Of a DNA stretch of 32,000 nt, positions 15,927 to 30,442 are shown one piece after another (the first letter of the stretch is position 1; each line of letters begins with the position of its first letter). This DNA is from Erysipelotrichaceae bacterium (GTDB lineage: Bacteria; Bacillota_I; Bacilli_A; Erysipelotrichales; Erysipelotrichaceae). Position numbers and translations under genes: made by a program. The stretch is from contig JAUVVC010000008.1 of the NCBI GenBank assembly GCA_030604855.1, positions 38,194 through 70,193 of the forward strand, in the 5' to 3' direction. The notes under the pieces were generated by a model. It made no database searches. It had not been told where the DNA came from and saw nothing but the letters and a program-made list of their open reading frames with translations.

Positions 15927-16613
15927 ATGACTTGTAATCATCATGCAAAAGAATCCGATAACTGTATCCAATGGGTACCCATCTTCAGCAATCTCTCAGA
16001 AGAAGAAATGCTGGAAGTGGCATACATCACCCATGAGGCACGTTTTGATAAGGGTTCTTTTGTTTATATGGCGGAAGATCCCGGAGGTAAGCTCTATGTT
16101 TTGCATAAAGGTAAAGTCAAGATCTCACGCATCGCTCAGAACGGCAAGGAACAAGTCCTTCGTATTGTAGAACCAGGTGAATTTTTGGGTGAGTTGAATC
16201 TCTTCAGTTCAAACAAGATCATGGACAATGCGGAAGTTCTGGAGCCTACCGTCATGTGTCTGATTGAAGCGGAGCCTTTGAAAGCCTTGATGGCCAAGTA
16301 TCCGTCCATTGCCTTCAAAGTCATGGAAGTTCTTAGCCAACGTTTGAATCAAGCAGAAACTTTGATTGAAAACATCAATCTCTATACTGTTGAGCAACGC
16401 ATCGCTCACCAACTCTTGCATCTTTCTGAAGGTAAACGGTCGATCCATCTCAAGATGAGTAAGGGAGATCTGGCTTCGCAAATGGGCATGAGCCAGGAGA
16501 CATTGAGTCGCAAGCTCACAGCCTTTCAGGAAATGGGTTGGATTGATTTGGAAGGTCAGCGTATCATCCACATCAAGAATCGTCTCGCACTCGAACAAAG
16601 CTTATCCGATTGA
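15927..16613 (+). CDS. Crp/Fnr family transcriptional regulator (FNR-like protein, Flp-type)
   Basis: 228 aa with a cNMP-binding-like beta-roll and a C-terminal HTH. The HTH carries the FNR-type E--SR recognition motif (QETLSRKL). There are only three Cys (C3, C13, C111). RBS AGGAG. Confidence 0.88.
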   Translation: MTCNHHAKESDNCIQWVPIFSNLSEEEMLEVAYITHEARFDKGSFVYMAEDPGGKLYVLHKGKVKISRIAQNGKEQVLRIVEPGEFLGELNLFSSNKIMDNAEVLEPTVMCLIEAEPLKALMAKYPSIAFKVMEVLSQRLNQAETLIENINLYTVEQRIAHQLLHLSEGKRSIHLKMSKGDLASQMGMSQETLSRKLTAFQEMGWIDLEGQRIIHIKNRLALEQSLSD

Positions 16614-16635
16614 CAAGCAGAAATGCTTGTTTTTA
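16613..16635 (+). terminator. rho-independent terminator after the crp/fnr gene
   Basis: ACAAGCA-GAAA-TGCTTGT followed by TTTTTA. It overlaps the TGA stop. Confidence 0.75.
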
Positions 16636-16750
16636 TATGGAAGTGAAAAATCTTTGCGTATCAATTAGTGAGTGAATACCAACAGAAAGTTGATGTAAAC
16701 AACATAGAAGTAAGCTAAACTTAAGATGTTCAAATTAGGAGATGTCAACG

Positions 16751-17470
16751 ATGCGTCAAAAAGTTCGTAAGTCATTCCTCTATCTCTCCGCACTCCTCTT
16801 TCCCGTAACACTTAATTATTTTTCACCTTATGTCTCAATCGACGGGGCTTTTTTGGGTATTGTAAGTGGGAGTGTCATTGTGTTTGGTTTACTATTTGTG
16901 TCCGCATTGTTTCTTGGCCGAGCTTGGTGTGCTTGGTTGTGCCCTGCAGGGGGTATCAGTGCGTTTGCACAAACCATCAACGCAAAAACTGTCCCTGTCA
17001 AAAGACTGAAATATGTTCGATATGGAATATTCACGGTTTGGTTAAGCATTTTGATTCTAGGGTTTGTATTGGCTGGAGGCATCAAAGGCGTCAATCCTTT
17101 ACATCTTACAGACACAGGTTTTTCAGTTGATGAACCTATTAAATACCTCATGTATTACTTGGTTGTATTTACCTGGTTAGGTTTATCGTTCTGGTTGGGC
17201 AAACGAGGAGCGTGTCATGCGATCTGTTGGATGTCGCCATTTTTGGTTGCAGGTACTTGGCTTGGCCAAAAGCTTCATCTTCCCCAATTAAAGATCAAGA
17301 GTGACCCTAATTTATGTATAAATTGTAAGCAATGTACGAAAGTCTGCCCAATGAGTATTATGGTTCATGAGGAGCTTATGCAAGGAGTGATTTCCAATAC
17401 AGACTGCATACGCTGTGCGGAATGTGTGGATGCATGTCCAAAGTCGGTGTTAAGATTAAACATCCATTAG
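16751..17470 (+). CDS. membrane-bound 4Fe-4S polyferredoxin (NapH/MauN/YccM-like)
   Basis: TM helices carrying the motif GRAWCAWLCP, plus two C-terminal ferredoxin motifs (CINCKQCTKVCP and CIRCAECVDACP). I place the start at the ATG at 16751 (GGAG about 10 nt upstream); the ATG at 16742 abuts the RBS. Confidence 0.82.
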   Translation: MRQKVRKSFLYLSALLFPVTLNYFSPYVSIDGAFLGIVSGSVIVFGLLFVSALFLGRAWCAWLCPAGGISAFAQTINAKTVPVKRLKYVRYGIFTVWLSILILGFVLAGGIKGVNPLHLTDTGFSVDEPIKYLMYYLVVFTWLGLSFWLGKRGACHAICWMSPFLVAGTWLGQKLHLPQLKIKSDPNLCINCKQCTKVCPMSIMVHEELMQGVISNTDCIRCAECVDACPKSVLRLNIH

Positions 17471-17518: not shown

Positions 17519-17535
17519 AATCATGAGGTATGGAT

Positions 17536-18381
17536 ATGCGCATTCTACAAACATCATTATTGACGCAAAAAGTCAAAGAACTTTTTATTGAAGCCAATGT
17601 GGACATTGGTCCATCTTTAGTTGATCGCTTACGTTCAGCCATGGAAGCAGAAGCTTCTCCAATCGGAAAGAATGTACTCGCTAAGATCATTGCGAACGAT
17701 GAATATGCAAAACGTGAGAAGATTGCGATCTGTCAAGATACAGGGGTTTCTGTTGTGTTCATCGATATCGGTCAAGATGTTCATTTTGATGGGGGCGACT
17801 TCAATGAAGCCATTCATGAAGGTGTACGTCAAGCGTATAAAGAAGGGTATTTGAGAAAATCGGTTGTGTCCGATCCTTTGTTTGATCGCAAGAATACACA
17901 GGACAACACACCTGCGATCATTCATCTTCGTATCATTCCGGGGAATGAAGTGCTTATAAAAGTCATGCCAAAAGGTTTTGGCAGTGAAAACATGAGTACG
18001 CTCAAACTCTTTGCCCCCTCAGTAGGCATCGAAGGGGTCAAACGATTCATCATCGAAACCATAGAAAAAGCAGGTCCCAATGCTTGTCCACCGATGATCG
18101 TTGGGGTGGGAATTGGAGGAACATTTGAGCAAGCCGCTTTGATCGCAAAGCGTGCCGTCTTACGTGGACCTGATCATCCGAACTTAGACCCACGATATTA
18201 TGAGTTGGAGAAAGAACTACTTGATCTAGCCAATCGTTTAGGGATTGGGCCAGCAGGCATGGGTGGTAGCACCACTGTTCTTGCCGTAAACATTGAGCAT
18301 CATCCAACACACATCGCATCGATTCCGGTTGCGATCAATATCAGTTGTCATGCGTCGCGGCATGCGGAAGGCGTTCTCTAA
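17536..18381 (+). CDS. Fe-S type hydro-lyase alpha subunit (class I fumarate hydratase / mesaconase type)
   Basis: CQDTG cluster ligand region, PKGFGSENMS, NACPPMIVGVGIGGT. This is fumarase-like rather than TtdA-like. ATG 17536 sits 7 nt after GAGG, whereas ATG 17530 sits 1 nt after it. Confidence 0.88.
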   Translation: MRILQTSLLTQKVKELFIEANVDIGPSLVDRLRSAMEAEASPIGKNVLAKIIANDEYAKREKIAICQDTGVSVVFIDIGQDVHFDGGDFNEAIHEGVRQAYKEGYLRKSVVSDPLFDRKNTQDNTPAIIHLRIIPGNEVLIKVMPKGFGSENMSTLKLFAPSVGIEGVKRFIIETIEKAGPNACPPMIVGVGIGGTFEQAALIAKRAVLRGPDHPNLDPRYYELEKELLDLANRLGIGPAGMGGSTTVLAVNIEHHPTHIASIPVAINISCHASRHAEGVL

Positions 18382-18932
18382 TGGAAAAGAAAATACAATT
18401 ACCACTGGATGAGGAAACCATTCTAAGTTTGCATGCAGGGGATACGGTATTATTATCAGGAACGTTGATTACAGGCAGAGATGCGGCGCATCTACGCTTG
18501 ATTCAAACACTTGAAAAGGGTGAGGACTTACCTATTGAACTCAAGGGTGAAGTCATCTATTATGTTGGACCTGCACCTGCAAGTCCTAATCATTTTGTTG
18601 GTTCTGCAGGACCGACATCCAGTTATCGCATGGATCCATTCACACCGACTTTGTTGGATGTTGGTCTAAAAGGTATTATCGGCAAAGGCGATCGTAGTCA
18701 ACGTGTCATCGATGCTTTAGTTCGCAATAAAGCAGTTTATTTTGCGGCAATCGGTGGTTTAGGAGCGTTGATTGCTCAAACCATTACTAAAAGTGAAGTC
18801 TTAGCGTATGCAGATTTAGGTACAGAGGCTATACATCGTTTCTGGATTGAAGATTTTCCTGTTGTCGTAGCCATTGATGCTTATGGAAACAACCTCTATC
18901 AGATCGAACAAGCCAAGTATCGTAAGGAGTAA
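18381..18932 (+). CDS. Fe-S type hydro-lyase beta subunit (class I fumarate hydratase / mesaconase type)
   Basis: 183 aa with GTLITGRDAAH...YYVGPAP...GPTSSYRMD...IGKG. TAATG overlap with the alpha subunit stop. Confidence 0.88.
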   Translation: MEKKIQLPLDEETILSLHAGDTVLLSGTLITGRDAAHLRLIQTLEKGEDLPIELKGEVIYYVGPAPASPNHFVGSAGPTSSYRMDPFTPTLLDVGLKGIIGKGDRSQRVIDALVRNKAVYFAAIGGLGALIAQTITKSEVLAYADLGTEAIHRFWIEDFPVVVAIDAYGNNLYQIEQAKYRKE

Positions 18933-18933
18933 A

Positions 18934-20094
18934 ATGTCAGATATCTATCAAAAAGCGCTTGAAGCGCATGCCTTATGGAAAGGTAAGTTACGTATCGAAG
19001 TCAATGCGCCAGTCAGTAATCGTGAAGAACTCAGCATCGCGTATACGCCAGGTGTCGCAGAGCCCTGTCGTGCGATTCATAAAGATCCGAGTAAAGTATA
19101 TGACTATACCTGGGTGGGCAATACGGTTGCGGTCATCACCGATGGGACTGCTGTTTTAGGTTTGGGCGATATTGGACCAAAGGCAAGTCTTCCCGTCATG
19201 GAAGGTAAATGTGCCCTGTTTAAGGCATTTGCTGGGATTGATGCGATCCCCATTGCATTGGATACAAAAGATCCCGATGAGCTCATCCAAATCATTAAAG
19301 CCTTAGCTCCGAGTTTTGGTGGTATCAATCTTGAAGATATTTCTGCACCCCGTTGTGTTCAGATTGAACGAGCGCTCAAAGATCAATTGGATATCCCTGT
19401 CTTTCATGATGACCAACATGGGACAGCCATTGTCGTATCAGCCGCATTGATCAATGCGTTGAAGTTGGTGAATAAAGAGATGTCTTCAATCAAACTTGTC
19501 GTGAGTGGAGCGGGAGCTGCAGGCAGTGCGATACTGTTCATGCTTAGAAATTTGGGTGTAAAAAATATCTTCGCATTTCGTAAAGAAGGCATTATCCTAA
19601 AGGATGATAAACATGACTTTTTAACGAAGGAACTGGCGGAATTCACCAATCCTGAACAAGCAGACATGAGCTTAGCGGAAGCTCTGGTTGGGGCAGATGT
19701 CTTTATCGGTGTTTCAGCACCACGTTTACTCAATTCAGATATGGTGAAGTCGATGAATAAAGATGCGATCATCTTTGCCTTGGCCAATCCTGAGCCTGAA
19801 ATTGATTATCATATCGCAAAAGAAGCGGGTGCCAGGGTTGTGGCAACAGGTCGCTCAGACTATCCCAATCAGATAAACAATGTGCTTGTTTTCCCAGGCA
19901 TCTTCAAAGGAGCCTTAGGTAGTCGAGCTAAACAAATAACTGAGGATATGAAAATCCGTGCAGCAGAAGCCATCGCTTCATTAGTCTCAGTCGAAGAATT
20001 ATCCGATGAATACATCATCCCTTCAGTATTCGATGCACGTGTAGCGGAGGCCGTATCGAAAGCGGTTGAAGAAGAGTCTCTGAAAGCGCTTTAA
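18934..20094 (+). CDS. NAD(P)-dependent malic enzyme (short form)
   Basis: 386 aa with LSIAYTPGVAEPC, VITDGTAVLGLGDIG, GINLEDISAP and the Rossmann motif VVSGAGAAG. RBS AAGGAG. The start is 1 nt after the beta subunit stop. Confidence 0.9.
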   Translation: MSDIYQKALEAHALWKGKLRIEVNAPVSNREELSIAYTPGVAEPCRAIHKDPSKVYDYTWVGNTVAVITDGTAVLGLGDIGPKASLPVMEGKCALFKAFAGIDAIPIALDTKDPDELIQIIKALAPSFGGINLEDISAPRCVQIERALKDQLDIPVFHDDQHGTAIVVSAALINALKLVNKEMSSIKLVVSGAGAAGSAILFMLRNLGVKNIFAFRKEGIILKDDKHDFLTKELAEFTNPEQADMSLAEALVGADVFIGVSAPRLLNSDMVKSMNKDAIIFALANPEPEIDYHIAKEAGARVVATGRSDYPNQINNVLVFPGIFKGALGSRAKQITEDMKIRAAEAIASLVSVEELSDEYIIPSVFDARVAEAVSKAVEEESLKAL

Positions 20095-20187
20095 TTTATT
20101 TACATAATAGTGTAGACTAGAACTATAGAACCACTTATCCATGCCAACCGAATGTATTCATATGTTTAAAAAGTAATGATGTACAAT

Positions 20188-20215
20188 AAGATGTCCTTTT
20201 AGGGCATCTTTTTTA
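20188..20215 (+). terminator. terminator-like hairpin immediately upstream of the glutamate mutase operon RBS
   Basis: AAGATGTCC-TTTTA-GGGCATCTT forms 9 bp including one G-U, followed by TTTT. The T-tract abuts the AAAGGAG RBS of the gene starting at 20226. Confidence 0.6.
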
Positions 20216-20225
20216 AAGGAGTCCA

Positions 20226-21146
20226 ATGTCACTTAATATCGATCAATTTCGTTATGCCACTTACTTTGCCCCGAGAGGTAAAAAACGCATGCAAAGCTTG
20301 GGTAACCAAGTCAGTCAACGTTATCTCTTACCAACCGATAAACTCATTGGTGTGATTGGGGATGCGGGGAGTGGGAAGTCCTTGTTTATCAAAGGGATGT
20401 TTCCAGGCTTGGAGTTGACCAATGATGATGATGGCATCAACACCCGTCCCTGTCCTTTGATGCGGGACTATGGACGCTCGCGATTTACCGCACATTCGTA
20501 TCACTTGGATGCACGCTTTGAATTGGCATTTCACCAAGTCTATGAATTGGTGGAAGCGATTCAAGCGGCGTTGAAAGACAACTCACGCATCATTGTCGAA
20601 CACTTCGATGCGCTGTACGACAATTTGCATCAAAACGCTAATCTCTTGATTGGTATTGGTGAGGAGATCATCATCGCACGTCCTACCTTGTTTGGACCAG
20701 AACCCGATGAGTTGAAGAATGTGGTTTTTCGAACCATTCAATATCGAAGAATGGCGCATACGGCGGAAGATTGTCTGGTCCATGTATTGGAAGAAGAATA
20801 CCACATCAAAATTGATGTCCACGGGGATGTCAAACACGGATTCATTCTTGGCTTCAATAAGAAGCCTCGTGTCTCGCTAAAACAACTCGAGAAGAAAGTG
20901 CGATCTTTGTTGGATCAACATCTACCGGTGACGTATCGGGACTTTGAACATATCCAGATCGGACCCAACATCACACAACACTGTACGGGTCCAAGAACAC
21001 ATGTTAAAAATACCGATCAAGTGGAGCATTTCAGAATTCTAGATCAATGGATCTATGATGAGAATCTTAAGGTCTATCAACTGATTGGTTTGGTTTCTAA
21101 AGAAGTTGTGCATGATATCCATAAAATCAATCAATATGCGGAATAA
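20226..21146 (+). CDS. uncharacterised P-loop NTPase-like protein
   Basis: 306 aa with a Walker A motif in LIGVIGDAGSGKSLF and a possible Walker B in RIIVEHFD. There is no ABC signature and I recognise no family. It is the first gene of the glm operon, with a strong RBS. Confidence 0.65.
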   Translation: MSLNIDQFRYATYFAPRGKKRMQSLGNQVSQRYLLPTDKLIGVIGDAGSGKSLFIKGMFPGLELTNDDDGINTRPCPLMRDYGRSRFTAHSYHLDARFELAFHQVYELVEAIQAALKDNSRIIVEHFDALYDNLHQNANLLIGIGEEIIIARPTLFGPEPDELKNVVFRTIQYRRMAHTAEDCLVHVLEEEYHIKIDVHGDVKHGFILGFNKKPRVSLKQLEKKVRSLLDQHLPVTYRDFEHIQIGPNITQHCTGPRTHVKNTDQVEHFRILDQWIYDENLKVYQLIGLVSKEVVHDIHKINQYAE

Positions 21147-21155
21147 GGAGCAAAT

Positions 21156-21563
21156 ATGGAAACAGTCGTAATCGGAGTCATTGGAGCGGATGTTCATGCG
21201 GTAGGCAATCGCATCATTGAATATGCTTTGAAGCAAGCGGGTTTCAATGTCGTCAATCTGGGGGTCATGGTCAGCCAGCAGGAATTTTTGGATGCGGTCA
21301 TAGAGACCAATGCCAAAGCGGTTATCGTCTCAAGCCTCTATGGCCATGGGGAACTGGATTGTCGTGGCATGGGAGATCGTTTCATTGAAGCGGGTTATGG
21401 TCATGTCTTGTTGTATATTGGGGGGAATCTTGTCATTGGCAAGACCGATTTCAGTGAAGTGGAAGTCAAGTTCAAAGCCATGGGTTTTCATCGAGTCTTC
21501 CCTCCGAACAGTGATATCAATGAAGGCATTGAACGTCTCAAAGAGGACTTATTGAAATCATGA
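21156..21563 (+). CDS. glmS: glutamate mutase (methylaspartate mutase) sigma/S subunit, B12-binding
   Basis: 135 aa. The cobalamin-binding DxHxxG motif is present ([12 protein letters not shown]), and size and sequence match clostridial MutS/GlmS. RBS AAGGAG. Confidence 0.92.
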
Positions 21564-22909
21564 AACGTTATTGCTTAATGGATGTGGGTTCAACCTTCAC
21601 CAAAGGATGCTGGGTGGATACCGATCATGTTGGTGTATTGGCTTGGGCAAGCGCCCCAACAACCGCATCCAGTGATATCAATGAAGGCATACAAAATGTC
21701 TTGAATAAATTAAAAACAATTTATCCGGATTTCAACTATGAAAGCATGCGCTTGTGCAGTTCCGCTAAAGGCGGCTTGCGCATGGTCGCAATTGGATTGG
21801 TTGAAGATCTGACCCTCAAGGCAGCACGCATGGCGTGTGCCAATGCGGGAGCGAAACTTGTGGGTGCTTACAGTCATAAAATCAATCTTCAAGAGTTGAA
21901 AGAAATTGAACATTTAAAGCCGGATATCATTCTCTTAAGTGGGGGCACCGATGGAGGCAATGAGGAAGTCGTACTCCATAACGCCAAACAACTTGCCAAA
22001 TTGAACACAGCTTTACCGATTCTTTATGCGGGGAATAAGAGTTGTCAGGATGAAATACAACAAATTTTAAATGAAGCCAAACATGATGTTCGCATCAGTG
22101 CGAACGTCATGCCTACTTATGGTGTCCTTAATGTCGAATCAGCACGAGATCAGATCCGTGCCTGTTTCCTTGAACAGATCATTGAAGCCAAAGGCTTAAG
22201 TGCTTTAAGCACAATTGTACAAGACATCATCATGCCGACTCCGGCCAGTGTCTTGGATGCCTTAAGTTTATTGGCGTATGGGACAAAAGATGAAAAGGGC
22301 TTAGGAGATCTGATGGCGGTGGATGTCGGTGGCGCAACCACGGATGTGTACTCACTAACGAGCAATCAAGCAGCACCTTCGGGTGTACAGATCAAAGGTT
22401 TGATCGAACCTTTGGCGAAACGTTCGGTTGAAGGTGATCTAGGATTGCGTATCTCTGCGAAACATGTCTTGGACTTGGATTCAGAACTTCATGAAAATGA
22501 GGACTTGTGTCGCTATGTCGATCGAATTACCCAGGAAATACATGGGACAAGCAATTCAAGTTTCGATATACGACTTGCCTCAAGCTGCGTCAAGATCGCA
22601 AGCCGTCGACATGCGGGTCGCTTGGAACAAATCTATACCCCGATGGGTTTGGAAACCATTCAATATGGGAAGGATTTAAGAACTGTGAAGACTTTGATCG
22701 GCATTGGGGGACCGATTGTCTATGCGGATGAGCCCAGTCTAATACTGAGTCAAGTCAAACAGACAGAAGCGGATATTTTATTGCCTCAGTCTTTGGAATT
22801 TATTTTGGATAAACAGTATGTCTTGAGTTGTTTGGGTTTGTTGGCAAAGACAGATCCAGAATGGACACTTAAAACAATGAAACATCATTTGGAGAAAATA
22901 AATGGCTAA
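21560..22909 (+). CDS. glmL: glutamate mutase accessory protein GlmL/MutL (ASKHA-type putative reactivase)
   Basis: 449 aa, positioned between the S and E subunits as in Clostridium. Motifs MDVGSTFTK and [10 protein letters not shown] resemble actin-like ATPase phosphate motifs. ATGA overlap. Confidence 0.85.
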
Positions 22910-24341
22910 AATTGCATTGGAAGTATTTCTGGCAGAACGCGCTGAGGTTTTGAAAGCCTGGCCGACAGGGAAAGATGTTCATCTCGAAGAAGCGATTGAA
23001 TATCAAAAGAGCATTCCGGATTCAAAGCGTTTCTCAAGTGTTCTTAAAAAAGCAGATCATGAACGTGAGACCTTGATTCAACCACGTGCAGGCGTAGCTT
23101 TACCTCAGGAACACCTCGCACTACTCAAACATCTACAAGATGAAGGAAAAGCGGATTTGTTGCCGACGACGATTGATAGCTATACGCGTCACAATCGTTA
23201 TGTGGAAGCTCAGGTGGGGATTGATGAAAGCATCAAAACCGGAAAATCTTTATTGAACGGGTTTCCAGCCGTCAATCATGGCGTTGCCTTATGTCGGTCT
23301 TTGAATGACGGACTGAAGGTTCCCCTTCAAGTACGACATGGGACACCCGATGCGCGCTTGTTGGCAGAGATCACATTGGCAGGCGGTTTCACTTCTTATG
23401 AAGGGGGCGGCATCTCCTATAACATACCTTACGGGAAGAACTATTCCTTAGAAAAAACGATACGCGATTGGCAATACGTGGATCGCTTGGTCGGTTACTA
23501 CGAGGAACAAGGCATTCGTATCAATCGTGAGCCTTTTGGACCTTTGACCGGAACCTTGGTTCCACCTTGCATCTCACACAGCGTTGCGATCTTGGAAGCT
23601 CTCTTAGCGGCTGAACAAGGTTGTAAGTGCATCACCGTCGGTTATGGACAATGTGGCAATCAGGCTCAAGACATTGCGGCGATCCGTTCACTTAAGCTTT
23701 TAACGAAAGAATATTTAGATCGCTTTGGGTACAACGATGTGCAAGTCACCACCGTCTTTCATCAATGGATGGGAGGCTTTCCACAGGATGAGGCTCAAGC
23801 CTATGGCGTCATTGCCTGGGGAGCCGCAACAGCGGTGCTAGCTGGGGCGACCAAAGTCATCGTCAAGTCACCGCATGAAGCTTTTGGGGTGCCGACCGCT
23901 GAGGCCAATGCGAATGGGCTAAAGACGACAAAACAGTTGACCCAAATGCTCAAGGACCAAAACAATGTCGACAGTCCTTTGATTCAAGAGGAAATGCGCT
24001 TGATCGGTGAAGAGACCCATTCCATATTGGAAGCTGTACTCAAGCTGGGTGAGAATGACTTTGCCTTGAGTGCGATCCGTGGCTTTGAGGCAGGCTTGAT
24101 AGATGTGCCCTTTGCGCCGGCGCAATGCAATGCGAATCAAGTATTGCCGGCCCGTGATCATCACGGTGCGGTCCGAATCTATGAGTTCGGTTATCTTCCA
24201 TTCAGTGAAGAACTTAAGAATGTTCATCGCGATAAACTGGATGAACGTGCGCAAGCAGAAGGTAGAGATGTGAGTTTTCAGATGGTGATCGATGATATTT
24301 ACGCTGTAAGCAAAGGACGCTTGGTAGGGAGACCGCGATAA
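22902..24341 (+). CDS. glmE: glutamate mutase (methylaspartate mutase) epsilon/E subunit
   Basis: 479 aa. Size, position and TIM-barrel-like sequence (IQPRAGV..., [21 protein letters not shown]) match GlmE/MutE. Confidence 0.9.
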
Positions 24342-25597
24342 TGAAAATACTGGATGTCGTAACGAGTTGTGGAAAAACTGGATTTTTCTTTGATGATCAA
24401 AAGGCCATTAAGAAACATGCGAAAGCCGATGGAAATTTCTATGTGGGCGAACCTGTCACTGCAGGTTTCAATCATGTGCGGCAAGCGGGGGAATCCCTGT
24501 CCATCCAATTGATCTTGGAAGATGGGCAGATCGCCTTAGGCGATTGTGTGGCGGTTCAATACAGTGGTTGTGGGGGACGTGATCCTTTGTTTATCGCGAA
24601 GGATTTTGAACCGATCGTTCATGAGCGCATTAAAGATTTATTATTAAATGAAGAGTTGGACTCGTTTAAACGTTTGGCTGAGAAATACGATCATCTGCAT
24701 ATTGATGGCAAACGGATCCATACGGCATTACGTTATGGTTTAACGCAAGCTTTGTTGGATGCGGTCGCAAAAGCTCAGCATTTACAAATGGCTGAGGTTG
24801 TGGCGAAAGAATATGGAACGACCGTGAGTACAGAGATGATTCCTATTTTTAGTCAAAGTGGGGATGCCCGGTATGACAATGCGGATAAGATGATCTTGAA
24901 AGAGACATCGGTATTGCCACACGGCTTGTTCAATCATGTGGAAGATAAAGTCGGCTTCAAAGGGGAGAAACTCTTGGCTTATGTCCAATGGTTGCGAAAT
25001 CGCATCGATACCCATAAGCAGAATCCTGAGTATCAGCCTGCGATTCATTTAGATCTTTATGGAACGATGGGTTTGATTTTTGAAGAGGATTTTGAGGCGA
25101 TGGTGGAATATTTCAAAACCTTGCGTGAGGCAAGTGGCTCGTATCGTTTGCGTTTGGAAGGTCCTGTCGACTACGATGATCAAGAGAAGACCATGAATGG
25201 TTTGACCATTTTGACGCGATTGATTGATGAGGCTGATTTGGACATTCAAATCGTCGCGGATGAATGGTGCAACACCCTTGAAGACATCAAGCGCTTTGCG
25301 GATGAGAAAGCCGGACACATGATCCAAATCAAAACACCGGACTTAGGTGGGATTCAGAATGTCATCGAAGCGGTACTCTATTGCAAAGACAAGGGTGTTG
25401 GGGCATACCAAGGGGGCAGCTGTAATGAGTCCGATGTGAGTGCCAAGGCTTGTGTACACTGTGCGATGGCCACGCAACCTTGTCAGATTCTTGCGAAGCC
25501 AGGCATGGGTGTGGATGAAGGCTTCATGTTGGCGTTCAATGAGATGCAGCGGATCTTAGCGGTACAAGATGCCAAGCAAAGGAGACGACATGGATAA
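24341..25597 (+). CDS. mal: methylaspartate ammonia-lyase (3-methylaspartase)
   Basis: 418 aa enolase-superfamily protein. N-terminus MKILDVV...GFFFDDQ, plus IQIKTPDLGG and YQGGSCNES as in clostridial MAL. TAATG overlap with glmE. Confidence 0.9.
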   Translation: MKILDVVTSCGKTGFFFDDQKAIKKHAKADGNFYVGEPVTAGFNHVRQAGESLSIQLILEDGQIALGDCVAVQYSGCGGRDPLFIAKDFEPIVHERIKDLLLNEELDSFKRLAEKYDHLHIDGKRIHTALRYGLTQALLDAVAKAQHLQMAEVVAKEYGTTVSTEMIPIFSQSGDARYDNADKMILKETSVLPHGLFNHVEDKVGFKGEKLLAYVQWLRNRIDTHKQNPEYQPAIHLDLYGTMGLIFEEDFEAMVEYFKTLREASGSYRLRLEGPVDYDDQEKTMNGLTILTRLIDEADLDIQIVADEWCNTLEDIKRFADEKAGHMIQIKTPDLGGIQNVIEAVLYCKDKGVGAYQGGSCNESDVSAKACVHCAMATQPCQILAKPGMGVDEGFMLAFNEMQRILAVQDAKQRRRHG

Positions 25598-26939
25598 CAT
25601 CAAGGTCTTATCACCGACTGCGATTTTGGGTTATGGCTTTCCAATCAGTAGCTTTGAAGCGGGTATGGCAAAATTACCCGATTGCATCGCAGTGGATGCG
25701 GGTTCGACCGATCCAGGACCTTATTACTTGGGGGCTGGACTGTCATTTACCGACCGTTATGCGGTCAAACGCGATTTAAGCATAATGATTCAAGCGGGTA
25801 TAGAACATCATATTCCTGTCTTGATTGGAAGTGCGGGGGGCAGTGGGGCTCAACCTCATCTTAAGTGGAACCTTGAAATCATCGAAGAAATCATCCAGGA
25901 ACAACACCTCCACATTAAATTAGCAGTCATTTCAGCAGACGTTTCAAAAGAACGTGCCTTGTTTGCTTTAAGTAGAGGGGAACTCAAACCCCTTCATCCC
26001 GCACCCGAGGCAACGGAAGCTGATATTACAGAAGCCAGCCATATCGTAGGTCAGATGGGGGTCGAGCCTTTCATTGAAGCACTTAAGGAAGGTGCGGATG
26101 TGATTCTTGCAGGTCGTTCATATGATCCCAGCATGTTTGCGGCATTGGCGATTCATCGAGGCTTCGATCCAGGAATCGCTTTACACTGTGGAAAGATCCT
26201 GGAATGTGCCGCCATCGCGTCAACACCAGGCAGTGGAAGTGATTGCATGCTTGGGACCATCTATGCGGATCGCTTTGTTTTAGAGACATTGAATCCAGCC
26301 CGTCGCTGTACGACGTTAAGTGTCAGTGCTCATACCTTGTATGAGAAGACCAATCCATACATCCTGCCGGGACCAGGTGGAACCTTAGACCTACATCAAA
26401 CCCAGTTCACCCAACTCAACGACCAACAAGTCGAAGTCAAAGGGACGGTTTTTATGCCAAGTGATCCATATACTGTGAAATTGGAAGCTGCGAAGTGTGT
26501 GGGTTATCGTACGGTAAGCATCGCGGGTGTGCGCGATCCTTTCTTCATCCAAGCTTTGGATGAGATCTTGAACGGAGTCAAACAACGTGTGCATGATAAT
26601 TTCAAAGAACTGGATTATCACTTGAATTTCAAGATTTATGGTAAGAACGGTGTCATGGGGGAATTGGAGCCCATAAGCGAAATACACAGTCATGAATTGG
26701 GCATCGTCATCGATGCGGTTGCGAAGACACAAGACATCGCCAACACCGTCTGTAGTTTCGCCAGAAGCACGATGTTGCATTATGGTTATACCGGACGCAT
26801 TGCAACGGCAGGGAATCTCGCATTTCCATACTCACCAAGTGATGCCAAGATGGGTGAAGTCTATCAATTCTGTCTCTATCACATCATCGATGTGCAAGAT
26901 CCTTTGGAATTATTTCCCATTGAATGGAGGGTTTACTAA
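25590..26939 (+). CDS. AtuA-like (DUF1446) family protein, function unknown
   Basis: 449 aa. SPTAILGYGF...VDAGSTDPGPYYLG...LIGSAGGSG matches the AtuA/DUF1446 pattern as I remember it. The ATG at 25590 follows AAAGGAG and overlaps the mal stop by 8 nt. Confidence 0.75.
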   Translation: MDNIKVLSPTAILGYGFPISSFEAGMAKLPDCIAVDAGSTDPGPYYLGAGLSFTDRYAVKRDLSIMIQAGIEHHIPVLIGSAGGSGAQPHLKWNLEIIEEIIQEQHLHIKLAVISADVSKERALFALSRGELKPLHPAPEATEADITEASHIVGQMGVEPFIEALKEGADVILAGRSYDPSMFAALAIHRGFDPGIALHCGKILECAAIASTPGSGSDCMLGTIYADRFVLETLNPARRCTTLSVSAHTLYEKTNPYILPGPGGTLDLHQTQFTQLNDQQVEVKGTVFMPSDPYTVKLEAAKCVGYRTVSIAGVRDPFFIQALDEILNGVKQRVHDNFKELDYHLNFKIYGKNGVMGELEPISEIHSHELGIVIDAVAKTQDIANTVCSFARSTMLHYGYTGRIATAGNLAFPYSPSDAKMGEVYQFCLYHIIDVQDPLELFPIEWRVY

Positions 26940-27253
26940 TGGTCAAGTTATTGGATTTGGCGAAGGTCATTCGTTCCAAGAATTCTGGACCCTATGAACT
27001 CACTTTGGACATCATCCTTAAGGATGAAGAAAGCTATCGTCTACTCATTGAGAAACAATGCATTACAAAAGATGTGATCGCCAAGCTGTATCGCATTCCT
27101 GTAGAGGACGTGATCAATGTGATACATTTCGAACCGGCACATGCGATCAAAGCAACGATCGTACGTCCCATGTGCAGTGGAGATCTCAATGAGACGGATG
27201 TGTATGGGGCTCAACAACACGCTCCACTCTTGCAGTTGGAATTTGATCTCTAA
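26939..27253 (+). CDS. DUF4387 domain protein (partner of AtuA-like proteins)
   Basis: 104 aa. LAKVIRSKNSGPYELTLDIIL...DVYGAQQHAPLL fits the DUF4387 pattern. TAATG overlap with the AtuA-like gene, with GGAGGG as RBS. Confidence 0.72.
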   Translation: MVKLLDLAKVIRSKNSGPYELTLDIILKDEESYRLLIEKQCITKDVIAKLYRIPVEDVINVIHFEPAHAIKATIVRPMCSGDLNETDVYGAQQHAPLLQLEFDL

Positions 27254-27276
27254 GTAGACCGCAAGGTCTACTTTTT
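27254..27276 (+). terminator. rho-independent terminator of the glm operon
   Basis: GTAGACC-GCAA-GGTCTAC followed by TTTTT, directly after the TAA stop. Confidence 0.85.
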
Positions 27277-29249: not shown

Positions 29250-29271
29250 CGGTCTTCTGATCGCTTTTTTT
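29248..29271 (+). terminator. rho-independent terminator after the HAD gene
   Basis: AGCGGTC-TTCT-GATCGCT forms 7 bp including one G-U, followed by TTTTTTT. Confidence 0.6.
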
Positions 29272-29311
29272 GATGGTTTTTCATACAATGGATGTAACAA
29301 ATGGAGGTCTT

Positions 29312-30442
29312 ATGATCAAGAATGAATCCTTGTATTTAGCCGGTCCGTTGGTCTTTTATGTGAATGGTATTGAGATGTGGCAGGCATGGCGTAGAGAAGC
29401 ACAGTACCATGGTTTCAATGTCGCTTTACCGAATGATAATGTCCCTGAAGCAGAACCTGGGAATAAGCGTCAATTGAGTGCTTCGATCTTTAAGAATTGT
29501 CGCGATTCCATCAATCAAACCACGACGATAATTGCCAACCTTGAAACCTATCGGGGCATGGTTCCCGATGGGGGTACGGTTTTTGAAGTGGGCATGGCGT
29601 ATGGTAAGGGGGCCAAATGTTATGGCTACACCAAAGATAAGCGACCTGAGGGTCAAAAGTATGGGTATGCGAAGTTGGATAATGAAGGGATTTGGGATTT
29701 GGAAGGTCGACCCTTGCCTTACTATCAACTGCCCTTTGGTCCCTGTTTGGTAGGTTCGAGCAAGATTGTTGAGGGTTCCTTCAGTGATGCGCTGGCGGTA
29801 TTCAAAGCAGACTTGGAAGAGGAGTCAAAGCTTAAGGCCAATCGCAACATCGAACTTAAGACTAAACCCGCAGAGCGTACCTTGTTTGCCAAAGATAAAC
29901 CTTTGGTCTATCTTTCAACTTTTGAGCGCTATGACAAAGATGCAGATCAGAAATTGAATGCGATGAAAGCAATCTTAAATCAATATGGCTTCCAAGGCAT
30001 CAGTCCATTGGACGATGCCCCGGGCGTTCAACGCATAGAGTCCGAGGATATGTATGAGCTTGCTTACAATACCTTTGATCACTATCAACAACATGTCCGT
30101 AATTGCGACATAATCCTTGCCAATCTCAATCCATATCATGGTTATGAACCCAATGAGGATGTGTCCTTTGAATGTGGTATGGCGTTCCAATTGGGCAAGA
30201 AACTCTTTGGATATGTGGATGATCTTAGACCCATGGTTGAATTGATTCCAAATGGAGGCGAAGCCAATGGCTGTCGTGATCTGAATGGGATGAATGTGGA
30301 AGATTTTGAGAATCCTTTGAATCTTATGTTTGGTGCTTCGTTCACCTTGTTTACGGGGGCATTTGAAACAGTGGTCAAGCAGATGGCGGATGCAATGCTT
30401 GATTTCAAGCTTGCGGATGATTTGGTTCCACCTGTTCTATGA
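29312..30442 (+). CDS. tandem-domain nucleoside 2-deoxyribosyltransferase-like protein
   Basis: 376 aa with two NDT/Rcl-like modules. Module 1 has LYLAGPLVF and DGGTVFEVGMAYGKG. Module 2 has EDVSFECGMAFQLGKK and the C-terminal VEDFENPLNLMF motif. ATG 29312 lies 4 nt after GGAGG. Confidence 0.75.
   Translation: MIKNESLYLAGPLVFYVNGIEMWQAWRREAQYHGFNVALPNDNVPEAEPGNKRQLSASIFKNCRDSINQTTTIIANLETYRGMVPDGGTVFEVGMAYGKGAKCYGYTKDKRPEGQKYGYAKLDNEGIWDLEGRPLPYYQLPFGPCLVGSSKIVEGSFSDALAVFKADLEEESKLKANRNIELKTKPAERTLFAKDKPLVYLSTFERYDKDADQKLNAMKAILNQYGFQGISPLDDAPGVQRIESEDMYELAYNTFDHYQQHVRNCDIILANLNPYHGYEPNEDVSFECGMAFQLGKKLFGYVDDLRPMVELIPNGGEANGCRDLNGMNVEDFENPLNLMFGASFTLFTGAFETVVKQMADAMLDFKLADDLVPPVL

Follow-up and report, generated by a model that had tools for sequence, protein, structure and literature searches.

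Which reactions are served by a gene block in which glutamate mutase and methylaspartase genes are packed together with three further genes? In the 32,000-nucleotide (nt) stretch of contig JAUVVC010000008.1 from an Erysipelotrichaceae bacterium (assembly GCA_030604855.1, positions 38,194 to 70,193; hereafter the window), seven open reading frames (ORFs) are packed on the + strand between positions 20226 and 27253. A preliminary description of this DNA regarded the first and the last two of them, a P-loop gene and genes of the AtuA and DUF4387 families, as uncharacterised partners that might add undescribed steps to an extended methylaspartate pathway. We find that the operon is the standard methylaspartate pathway in a new lineage. 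Together with the fumarase genes upstream, it very probably forms a complete gene set for the conversion of glutamate to pyruvate, acetate, and ammonia, with a CmlAB-type citramalate lyase at its end and gene 1 as an accessory. The seven genes are the following:

20226 to 21146, + strand: gene 1, conserved two-domain protein of 306 amino acids, with a TsaE/YjeE-like P-loop domain and a domain like the editing domain of alanyl-tRNA synthetase (AlaRS), also called the second additional domain (SAD)
21156 to 21563, + strand: glmS, glutamate (methylaspartate) mutase small B12-binding subunit, 135 amino acids, NF002612
21560 to 22909, + strand: glmL (mutL), glutamate mutase accessory/reactivating protein, 449 amino acids, NF040745
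22902 to 24341, + strand: glmE, glutamate mutase catalytic subunit, 479 amino acids, TIGR01503
24341 to 25597, + strand: mal, 3-methylaspartate ammonia-lyase, 418 amino acids, TIGR01502
25590 to 26939, + strand: cmlA (gene 6), predicted large subunit of a CmlAB-type citramalate lyase (AtuA/DUF1446 family), from its match to 9ERQ_A
26939 to 27253, + strand: cmlB (gene 7), predicted small subunit of a CmlAB-type citramalate lyase (DUF4387), from its match to 9ERQ_B

The ORF of gene 6 opens at 25569 or 25590, and that of gene 7 at 26924 or 26939. We chose ATG 25590, which has AGGAG 5 nt upstream, and ATG 26939, which is preceded by GGAGG; both choices agree with where the homologues in the PDB and in E. 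coli begin. With these two starts, the junctions between the seven genes are, in order, exactly +9, −4, −8, −1, −8, and −1 nt, and the row of coupled same-strand ORFs is reproduced as it had been described. Gene count and junctions thus stand, while the picture of an isolated unit does not, as fumAB and a malic enzyme gene lie directly upstream on the same strand.

The last two genes belong to families without a functional name. Gene 6 falls into Pfam AtuA (PF07287; 84 bits against a cut-off of 22.8, with the profile matched only in part), and gene 7 into DUF4387 (PF14330; 132 bits against a cut-off of 27). Both match the chains of a solved enzyme. Residues 4–441 of gene 6 align to residues 5–442 of chain A of PDB entries 9ERQ/9EVF (E 3.2e-158, 56.7% identity over 436 amino acids), and gene 7 matches chain B of the same entries (E 9.5e-28). 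These chains are deposited as “Citramalate lyase, subunit A (cmlA)”, of the AtuA family, and “subunit B (cmlB)”, a DUF4387 protein. The window's cmlB stands immediately downstream of cmlA, with a 1-nt overlap. Moreover, cmlAB of Raoultella planticola, a gift of the Berg laboratory, has been used to cleave citramalate directly to pyruvate and acetate, and E. coli FumA together with Cml gave mesaconate-dependent growth with label passing into acetyl-coenzyme A (CoA) (bioRxiv 10.64898/2026.01.16.699985). Based on the match to the solved CmlAB and on this use of CmlAB on citramalate, genes 6 and 7 are assigned to the known last step of the methylaspartate pathway, a classical step taken by a non-classical enzyme whose citramalate lyase activity is predicted from the homology. 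Hence, the AtuA and DUF4387 genes, being CmlAB homologues, are neither uncharacterised partners nor carriers of undescribed steps; among the three, only the P-loop gene keeps the former label. A DUF1446 gene downstream of mal had already been seen in Enterobacteriaceae and Dictyoglomus in 2015, its function then unknown, and Kronen and Berg called the fate of citramalate in E. coli unclear (PMC4682846).

Gene neighbourhoods provide independent support. A genome survey, with one genome per species, was seeded on the gene 1 family, and the best 80 of 413 relatives were used; a metagenome survey was seeded on Mal and comprised 30 loci whose flanks reach 6 kb or more on either side. Loci were annotated by tblastn with the window proteins and with CitDEFC of Sporomusa, the components of the acyl carrier protein (ACP)-dependent lyase system. 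Among the glm/mal loci of the genome survey, CmlAB occurs in 25 and CitEF in 15, and among the metagenome loci in 7 and 13, respectively; no locus of either survey has both. Summed over some 160 related loci, 32 Cml loci and 28 Cit loci stand against none that combines the two. This either/or pattern supports that CmlAB and CitDEF do the same job, as in a non-orthologous displacement.

The surveys also establish that the three extra genes are real partners of the glm/mal core, as had been proposed. AtuA and DUF4387 genes follow mal from Firmicutes to E. coli, where the order glmS-glmL-glmE-mal-AtuA-DUF4387-gltP-class I fumarase-cobO is present in 1123 of 5426 complete genomes. The P-loop gene, gene 1, has glm/mal nearby in 52 of the 80 genome loci, and some pathway gene in 60 of them; where both flanks extend to 6 kb or more (33 loci), the counts are 26 for glm/mal and 29 for any pathway gene. 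An association confined to this genome is thereby excluded. Among the metagenome loci, gene 1 is found in 16 of 30, and in 15 of the 20 that have a lyase nearby. Its best match in the genome survey is from the metagenome-assembled genome “Erysipelotrichaceae bacterium UBA4808”, with 97% identity and identical gene order.

Within the metagenome survey, a human-gut lineage (L111, L115, L116, L121, L122, L123, and L126) carries glmSLE-mal with no lyase, fumarase, or gene 1 within 6–10 kb on either side. The rest of the pathway in this lineage must therefore lie elsewhere or be different.

In the core of the operon, all four middle genes score well beyond the curated equivalog cut-offs, in line with their initial naming as glmS-glmL-glmE-mal. 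GlmS scores 208 bits with NF002612 (cut-off 110) and matches Pfam B12-binding (E 4.5e-13); its residues 12–17, D-V-H-A-V-G, satisfy the base-off/His-on cobalamin motif DxHxxG. GlmL reaches 535 bits with NF040745 (cut-off 475; Pfam MutL E 7e-148), and GlmE 741 bits with TIGR01503 (cut-off 390). Mal scores 542 bits with TIGR01502 (cut-off 286) and matches both MAAL_N (E 3.5e-69) and MAAL_C (E 1.9e-109). The domain calls of the preliminary description were all borne out by the Pfam/NCBIfam profile scores.

Between mesaconate, the product of Mal, and citramalate, the substrate of CmlAB, a hydratase is needed. Candidates for this step lie directly upstream of the operon:

17530 to 18381, + strand: class I fumarate hydratase alpha subunit, candidate mesaconase subunit A (Pfam Fumerase E 2e-112)
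18345 to 18932, + strand: class I fumarate hydratase beta subunit, candidate mesaconase subunit B (Pfam Fumerase_C E 2e-57)
18874 to 20094, + strand: malic enzyme (SfcA-like; Pfam malic and Malic_M), with the true start probably downstream of the listed TTG

The alpha gene is kept upstream of gene 1 in Erysipelotrichaceae loci and lies within many related clusters elsewhere, and alpha and beta are always paired in the surveyed loci. To our knowledge, citramalate cannot serve as a substrate of malic enzyme. The malic enzyme gene nevertheless accompanies fumAB in glutamate clusters of Erysipelotrichaceae and Sporomusaceae (window 18874–20094; L020, L023, L026, L034, L039, L129). Two-subunit class I fumarases of such clusters have been described as the putative mesaconase MesAB, and SfcA, the malic enzyme, is drawn in the same cluster figure (Fig 4 legend; PMC4682846). 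By analogy with these, the fumarase at 17530–18932 is probably a mesaconase that would convert mesaconate to (S)-citramalate.

In the proposed route, GlmS and GlmE, dependent on adenosylcobalamin and maintained by GlmL, would convert L-glutamate to (2S,3S)-3-methylaspartate, from which Mal would form mesaconate and ammonia. The fumarase alpha and beta subunits would most likely hydrate mesaconate to (S)-citramalate, and CmlAB would cleave this directly to pyruvate and acetate, in place of the clostridial ACP-dependent CitDEF-type lyase. Gene 1 would stand outside the carbon flow, as a conserved ATP-binding accessory protein with a probable metal site in its SAD-like domain. Its role would most likely be one of maintenance or protection, either the upkeep of the mutase cofactor or enzyme, or the clearing of a harmful by-product of an amino-acid intermediate.

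Several points weigh against this assignment of the locus. A literature search found no primary paper on CmlAB, so the support for its function comes from the molecule names in the PDB and from a single preprint, and citramalate cleavage is reported for the R. planticola enzyme only; for the CmlAB of the window we infer it. The E. coli homologues are still named “acyclic terpene utilization AtuA family protein” and “DUF4387 domain-containing protein” in RefSeq (L085 9636–11320, 2026), and NCBIfam (release 20) holds no model for CmlA or CmlB. The fumarase could alternatively be an ordinary one, paired with the adjacent malic enzyme, and a terminator-like hairpin lies between the fumarase/malic enzyme genes and the seven-gene unit. 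Further, gene 1 is absent from 14 of the 30 well-flanked mal loci, 7 of which represent the single human-gut lineage, and in about 22–24 Peptococcaceae-type loci it stands directly upstream of rph-rdgB, and the flanks hold no pathway gene. Some of these points would also suit a different view, in which genes 6 and 7 and the P-loop protein run new reactions that extend or divert the methylaspartate/mesaconate pathway, for example by activating or modifying mesaconate. The tight coupling of genes 6 and 7 to mal is compatible with it, as are the databases, which give the two genes no function (no NCBIfam match, and family names only in RefSeq), and the explicit listing of the DUF1446 gene as one of unknown function in 2015 (PMC4682846). 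We nonetheless consider such new chemistry very improbable. Gene 6 shares 57% identity over its full length with the protein deposited as the citramalate lyase subunit CmlA, gene 7 adds the match to CmlB, and the solved CmlAB-type enzyme has been used in vivo for citramalate cleavage. The mutual exclusion of CmlAB and CitDEF genes in the roughly 160 loci is what is expected for enzymes of the same step. Finally, domain scans of the window, which covered ORFs of at least 120 amino acids, detected no CoA-transferase or mesaconyl-CoA hydratase, nor any CitD, CitE, CitF, or cobalamin adenosyltransferase domain.

With citramalate cleavage attributed to CmlAB, gene 1 is the member of the operon that calls for an explanation. 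The family has 3142 detectable homologues that form few full-length clusters at 50% identity, and its 329 representatives are mostly fragments. Over Erysipelotrichia, Clostridia, and Negativicutes, the mean column identity of the alignment is 63%, with about 70 invariant residues. The AlphaFold (AF2) model has two domains, with a predicted local distance difference test (pLDDT) score of 81.9. Residues 1 to ~155, which contain the Walker A motif GDAGSGKS, match TsaE/YjeE/YdiB structures (1htw, 6n9a, 5mvr; Foldseek E 1e-5), and residues ~160–300 match AlaRS editing/AlaX structures (2zzg, 1v7o; E 2e-4 to 7e-4) with a target template modelling (TM) score of ~0.5. This second domain carries the motif C253-T-G-P-R-T-H259-V, in which C-x-G-P-(x2)-H-V resembles the CxGPHV motif of SAD proteins. 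In every context of gene 1, Walker A (GDAGxGKS), D67, D68, E125, H126, H199-x-D201, and C253-x-G-P-R-x-H259 are invariant or near-invariant. The site spacing is H-x-D and C-x5-H as against HxxxH and CxxxH in AlaX/tRNA_SAD, with H199, D201, C253, and H259 invariant, and the C-terminal half gives no match to Pfam tRNA_SAD.

Gene 1 is not TsaE itself. It scores 20.2 with PF02367 (cut-off 26.6) and 21.6 with TIGR00150 (cut-off 60.1), and it has 306 amino acids and a second domain, compared with the ~150 amino acids of single-domain TsaE. Names given at source, such as TsaE, lantibiotic ABC transporter, or [quoted passage not shown], amount to guesswork. Single-sequence and profile searches against the PDB returned only Walker-A-level matches to ABC ATPases, and by sequence search the combination of the two domains was not found in any solved structure. 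A search for fusions in a representative library of 1.8 billion proteins yielded only P0212, joined to a CotH fragment, and P0148, joined to Mob_Pre; both look like artefacts of assembly or gene calling.

Within clusters, gene 1 follows cmlB in 22 loci and mal in 19, precedes glmS in 18 and fumA in 7, and is also found beside citC, citD, or citE; it accompanies either lyase type, CmlAB or CitEF. Since its position varies in this way, gene 1 tracks the pathway and not one partner. A role as a substitute for CitG/CitX in lyase activation is ruled out because gene 1 also occurs with the ACP-free CmlAB. The E. coli glm cluster contains no gene 1 homologue; the 314-amino-acid hypothetical protein encoded upstream of its glmS was tested and is not homologous. 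As that cluster does without it, gene 1 is dispensable for the chemistry of the pathway. Glutamate mutase and methylaspartase are active in purified form, and FumA with CmlAB suffices for the lower pathway. Together with the absence from E. coli, this argues that gene 1 is not a step of the carbon flow.

A second context is formed by rph, for RNase PH, and rdgB/Ham1, with variable upstream neighbours and with all key residues of gene 1 kept (L027–L031, L037, L042, L046, L048, L052–L060, L065, L066, L069–L071, L080). As loci of this kind can lack pathway genes, the link of gene 1 to the pathway is not obligatory. Two of them, L066 and L080, unite both contexts in the series cmlAB, gene 1, rph, and rdgB. 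In three others, an orphan glmE, located between murI/gerM and rph, adjoins gene 1 or lies one gene away (L058 7410–10873, L065 7352–10846, L069 7353–10918). This glmE is full-length (668 bits with Pfam in L069), and the flanks of these three loci show no matches to glmS, glmL, or mal.

Gene 1 is most likely an accessory or maintenance factor, for which the roles of a mutase chaperone and of an SAD-type hydrolase carry similar weight. As a cobalamin or mutase chaperone, gene 1 would load, protect, or exchange adenosylcobalamin on GlmS/GlmE together with GlmL, as a functional analogue of MeaB or of the adenosyltransferase that serve methylmalonyl-CoA mutase. This proposal agrees with the place of gene 1, which immediately precedes glmS in the window, 9 nt before it, as well as in 11 genome and 7 metagenome loci, and with the orphan glmE at or near gene 1 in L058, L065, and L069. 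P-loop NTPases with invariant His and Cys residues are, moreover, typical of cofactor and metal chaperones. However, the fold is TsaE-like and unlike the G3E family of MeaB, and the SAD-like domain would be left unexplained. Outside Erysipelotrichaceae, most loci have gene 1 beside lyase or fumarase genes and not the mutase, some have only cit/fum genes nearby (L074, L084, L043), and beside rph-rdgB it is kept with all key residues and no glm genes in the flanks. A CobO-type adenosyltransferase is encoded in only four of the loci (L085 of E. coli, and L097, L100, and L110), three of them without gene 1 (L085, L097, L100), but this complementary pattern is weak, four loci being too few to judge. 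We therefore regard the chaperone as a tentative proposal, somewhat unlikely as it stands.

The likeness of both domains to tRNA-related proteins suggests another form of maintenance, in which gene 1 would be the first of a new class of ATP-binding, pathway-linked protective factors. Its SAD/AlaX-like domain, in which the His/Asp/Cys/His site is kept, would hydrolyse a mis-made aminoacyl ester, for example a tRNA mischarged with the non-proteinogenic intermediate 3-methylaspartate, and so shield translation in cells with an active glutamate mutase. This is doubtful in its specifics, although it would explain at once the likeness just mentioned, the lack of a fixed partner in the clusters together with the dispensability for chemistry, and the position upstream of the tRNA-processing rph and the house-cleaning rdgB. 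The same gene 1-rph-rdgB triad, present in about 24 loci, could instead mark a plain housekeeping protein, such as TsaE according to the Joint Genome Institute (JGI) naming or a tRNA/RNA factor of the rph-rdgB neighbourhood, unrelated to glutamate fermentation. It would adjoin the pathway by chance, the murI-gerM-rph region of Firmicutes being where the glutamate cluster is located. The series cmlAB-gene 1-rph-rdgB in L066 and L080, rph-rdgB some 2 kb upstream of glmS in Sporomusa, murI and gerM near gene 1 in L065 and L069, and the weak match of gene 1 to the TsaE hidden Markov model all point in this direction. Against it, the TsaE scores lie under both curated cut-offs, and the protein has twice the length of TsaE and an extra domain. 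Moreover, in Erysipelotrichaceae, Clostridium grantii, Petroclostridium, Vallitalea, Christensenellales, and Oscillospiraceae, gene 1 lies within the pathway cluster, and rph is not close by. Chance synteny fails to explain its differing positions in differently ordered clusters, and the 15 of 20 mal loci that combine gene 1 with a nearby lyase also speak for a link to the pathway. A housekeeping protein placed there by chance thus appears improbable.

Two hairpins frame the seven genes:

20188 to 20215, + strand: hairpin and T-run, candidate intrinsic terminator or attenuator, between the malic enzyme gene and gene 1
27252 to 27273, + strand: intrinsic terminator of the operon by terminator scan, with a 9-bp stem, 4 GC pairs, and a T-run

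As in the preliminary description, the operon is bounded by hairpins, and both fold better than most shuffled sequences and are followed by a T-run. The downstream hairpin has a folding energy of −14.4 kcal/mol (z −3.5, 0 of 200 shuffles as stable), the upstream one of −12.1 kcal/mol (z −2.4, 5 of 200 shuffles as stable). The upstream hairpin lies just ahead of the ribosome-binding site of gene 1. As it ends only ~10 nt before the start codon, the sequence suggests two ways of expression for the seven genes: transcription either reads through from the fumAB/malic enzyme unit or starts at a promoter ahead of the hairpin. At 20080–20108 there is a weak −35/−10 match; if it were used as a promoter, the hairpin would act as an attenuator. 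The Erysipelotrichaceae relatives L005, L008, L010, L011, L012, L049, and L087 have a hairpin at the matching position of the ~150-nt upstream region, with differing stem sequences. Two of these relatives, L008 and L010, have a short ORF, equipped with a Shine-Dalgarno sequence, that lies ahead of the hairpin or overlaps it, a hint of attenuation. A search for a riboswitch or leader in the 130 nt preceding gene 1, and across the window as a whole, gave no Rfam match.

Further upstream, at 15927–17470, the same strand encodes a Crp/Fnr-family regulator and a membrane-type 4Fe-4S protein immediately ahead of the fumarase genes. The two may be the anaerobic regulator of the whole block. Downstream of the operon, the window encodes a 390-amino-acid protein (29270–30442) with a tandem pair of nucleoside 2-deoxyribosyltransferase-like domains.

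Once CmlAB is recognised as citramalate lyase, the route from glutamate to pyruvate and acetate is closed in Erysipelotrichaceae, in numerous Firmicutes of gut and sediment, and in the ~20% of complete E. coli genomes with this cluster. The survey shows that two unrelated lyases, CmlAB and CitDEF, are interchangeable in the methylaspartate pathway. RefSeq/NCBIfam annotation lags behind the PDB entries for CmlA and CmlB. What is left as new at this locus is the gene 1 family, whose compact P-loop/SAD-like protein is very conserved and goes with the pathway in many Firmicutes. What this protein does could bring to light a maintenance requirement of B12-dependent glutamate fermentation that has so far gone unrecognised.

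Among known systems, two that share single features with the locus can be set aside. The haloarchaeal methylaspartate cycle is excluded because the domains of its CoA pathway, mesaconate CoA-transferase, mesaconyl-CoA hydratase, and beta-methylmalyl-CoA lyase, were not found in the scanned ORFs of the window, which had at least 120 amino acids; the window has a direct citramalate route in its place. The acyclic terpene utilisation (Atu) system has only the Pfam AtuA domain in common with it: the window holds none of the atuB-H partners, such as geranyl-CoA carboxylase. Pseudomonas AtuA shares PF07287 with gene 6, near which there are no atu cluster genes, and since its close solved relative belongs to a citramalate lyase, the “terpene” in the family name says nothing about gene 6. 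As for gene 1, its N-terminal half superposes on TsaE/YjeE and has the Walker A motif, with scores below the TsaE cut-offs. Its C-terminal half superposes on the AlaX/AlaRS editing domain, from which it differs in the altered spacing of the metal motif and in its metabolic genomic context.

The closest counterparts are two glutamate clusters. The enterobacterial cluster of the E. coli O157:H7 type (PMC4682846) has the same core order, glmS-glmL-glmE-mal-cmlA-cmlB, and cmlA and cmlB overlap there as in the window. The CmlA proteins of this cluster and of R. planticola are 57–59% identical to that of the window (E. coli 59%), and E. coli CmlB is 45% identical. A class I fumarase is associated with both loci, but in E. 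coli it is the single-chain FumD, encoded downstream, whereas that of the window is of the two-subunit clostridial type and is encoded upstream, together with malic enzyme. The enterobacterial cluster also includes gltP and cobO, which are missing from the window, while the window has the P-loop/SAD gene before glmS, without a homologue in the E. coli cluster. The window also resembles the CitDEF and MesAB cluster of Clostridia and Negativicutes, which serves the same pathway and has the glmS-L-E-mal block, a two-subunit fumarase, malic enzyme, and the gene 1 family. Sporomusa sphaeroides (L002) has its genes arranged as GntR-glmS-L-E-mal-gene1-citD-E-F-citC-fumA-fumB, and in the related loci L020, L023, and L026 the malic enzyme gene is inserted between citC and fumA. 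The lyase sets the two apart: the clostridial and Negativicutes clusters encode the ACP-dependent CitDEF with its CitC ligase, whereas the window encodes the two-subunit CmlAB.

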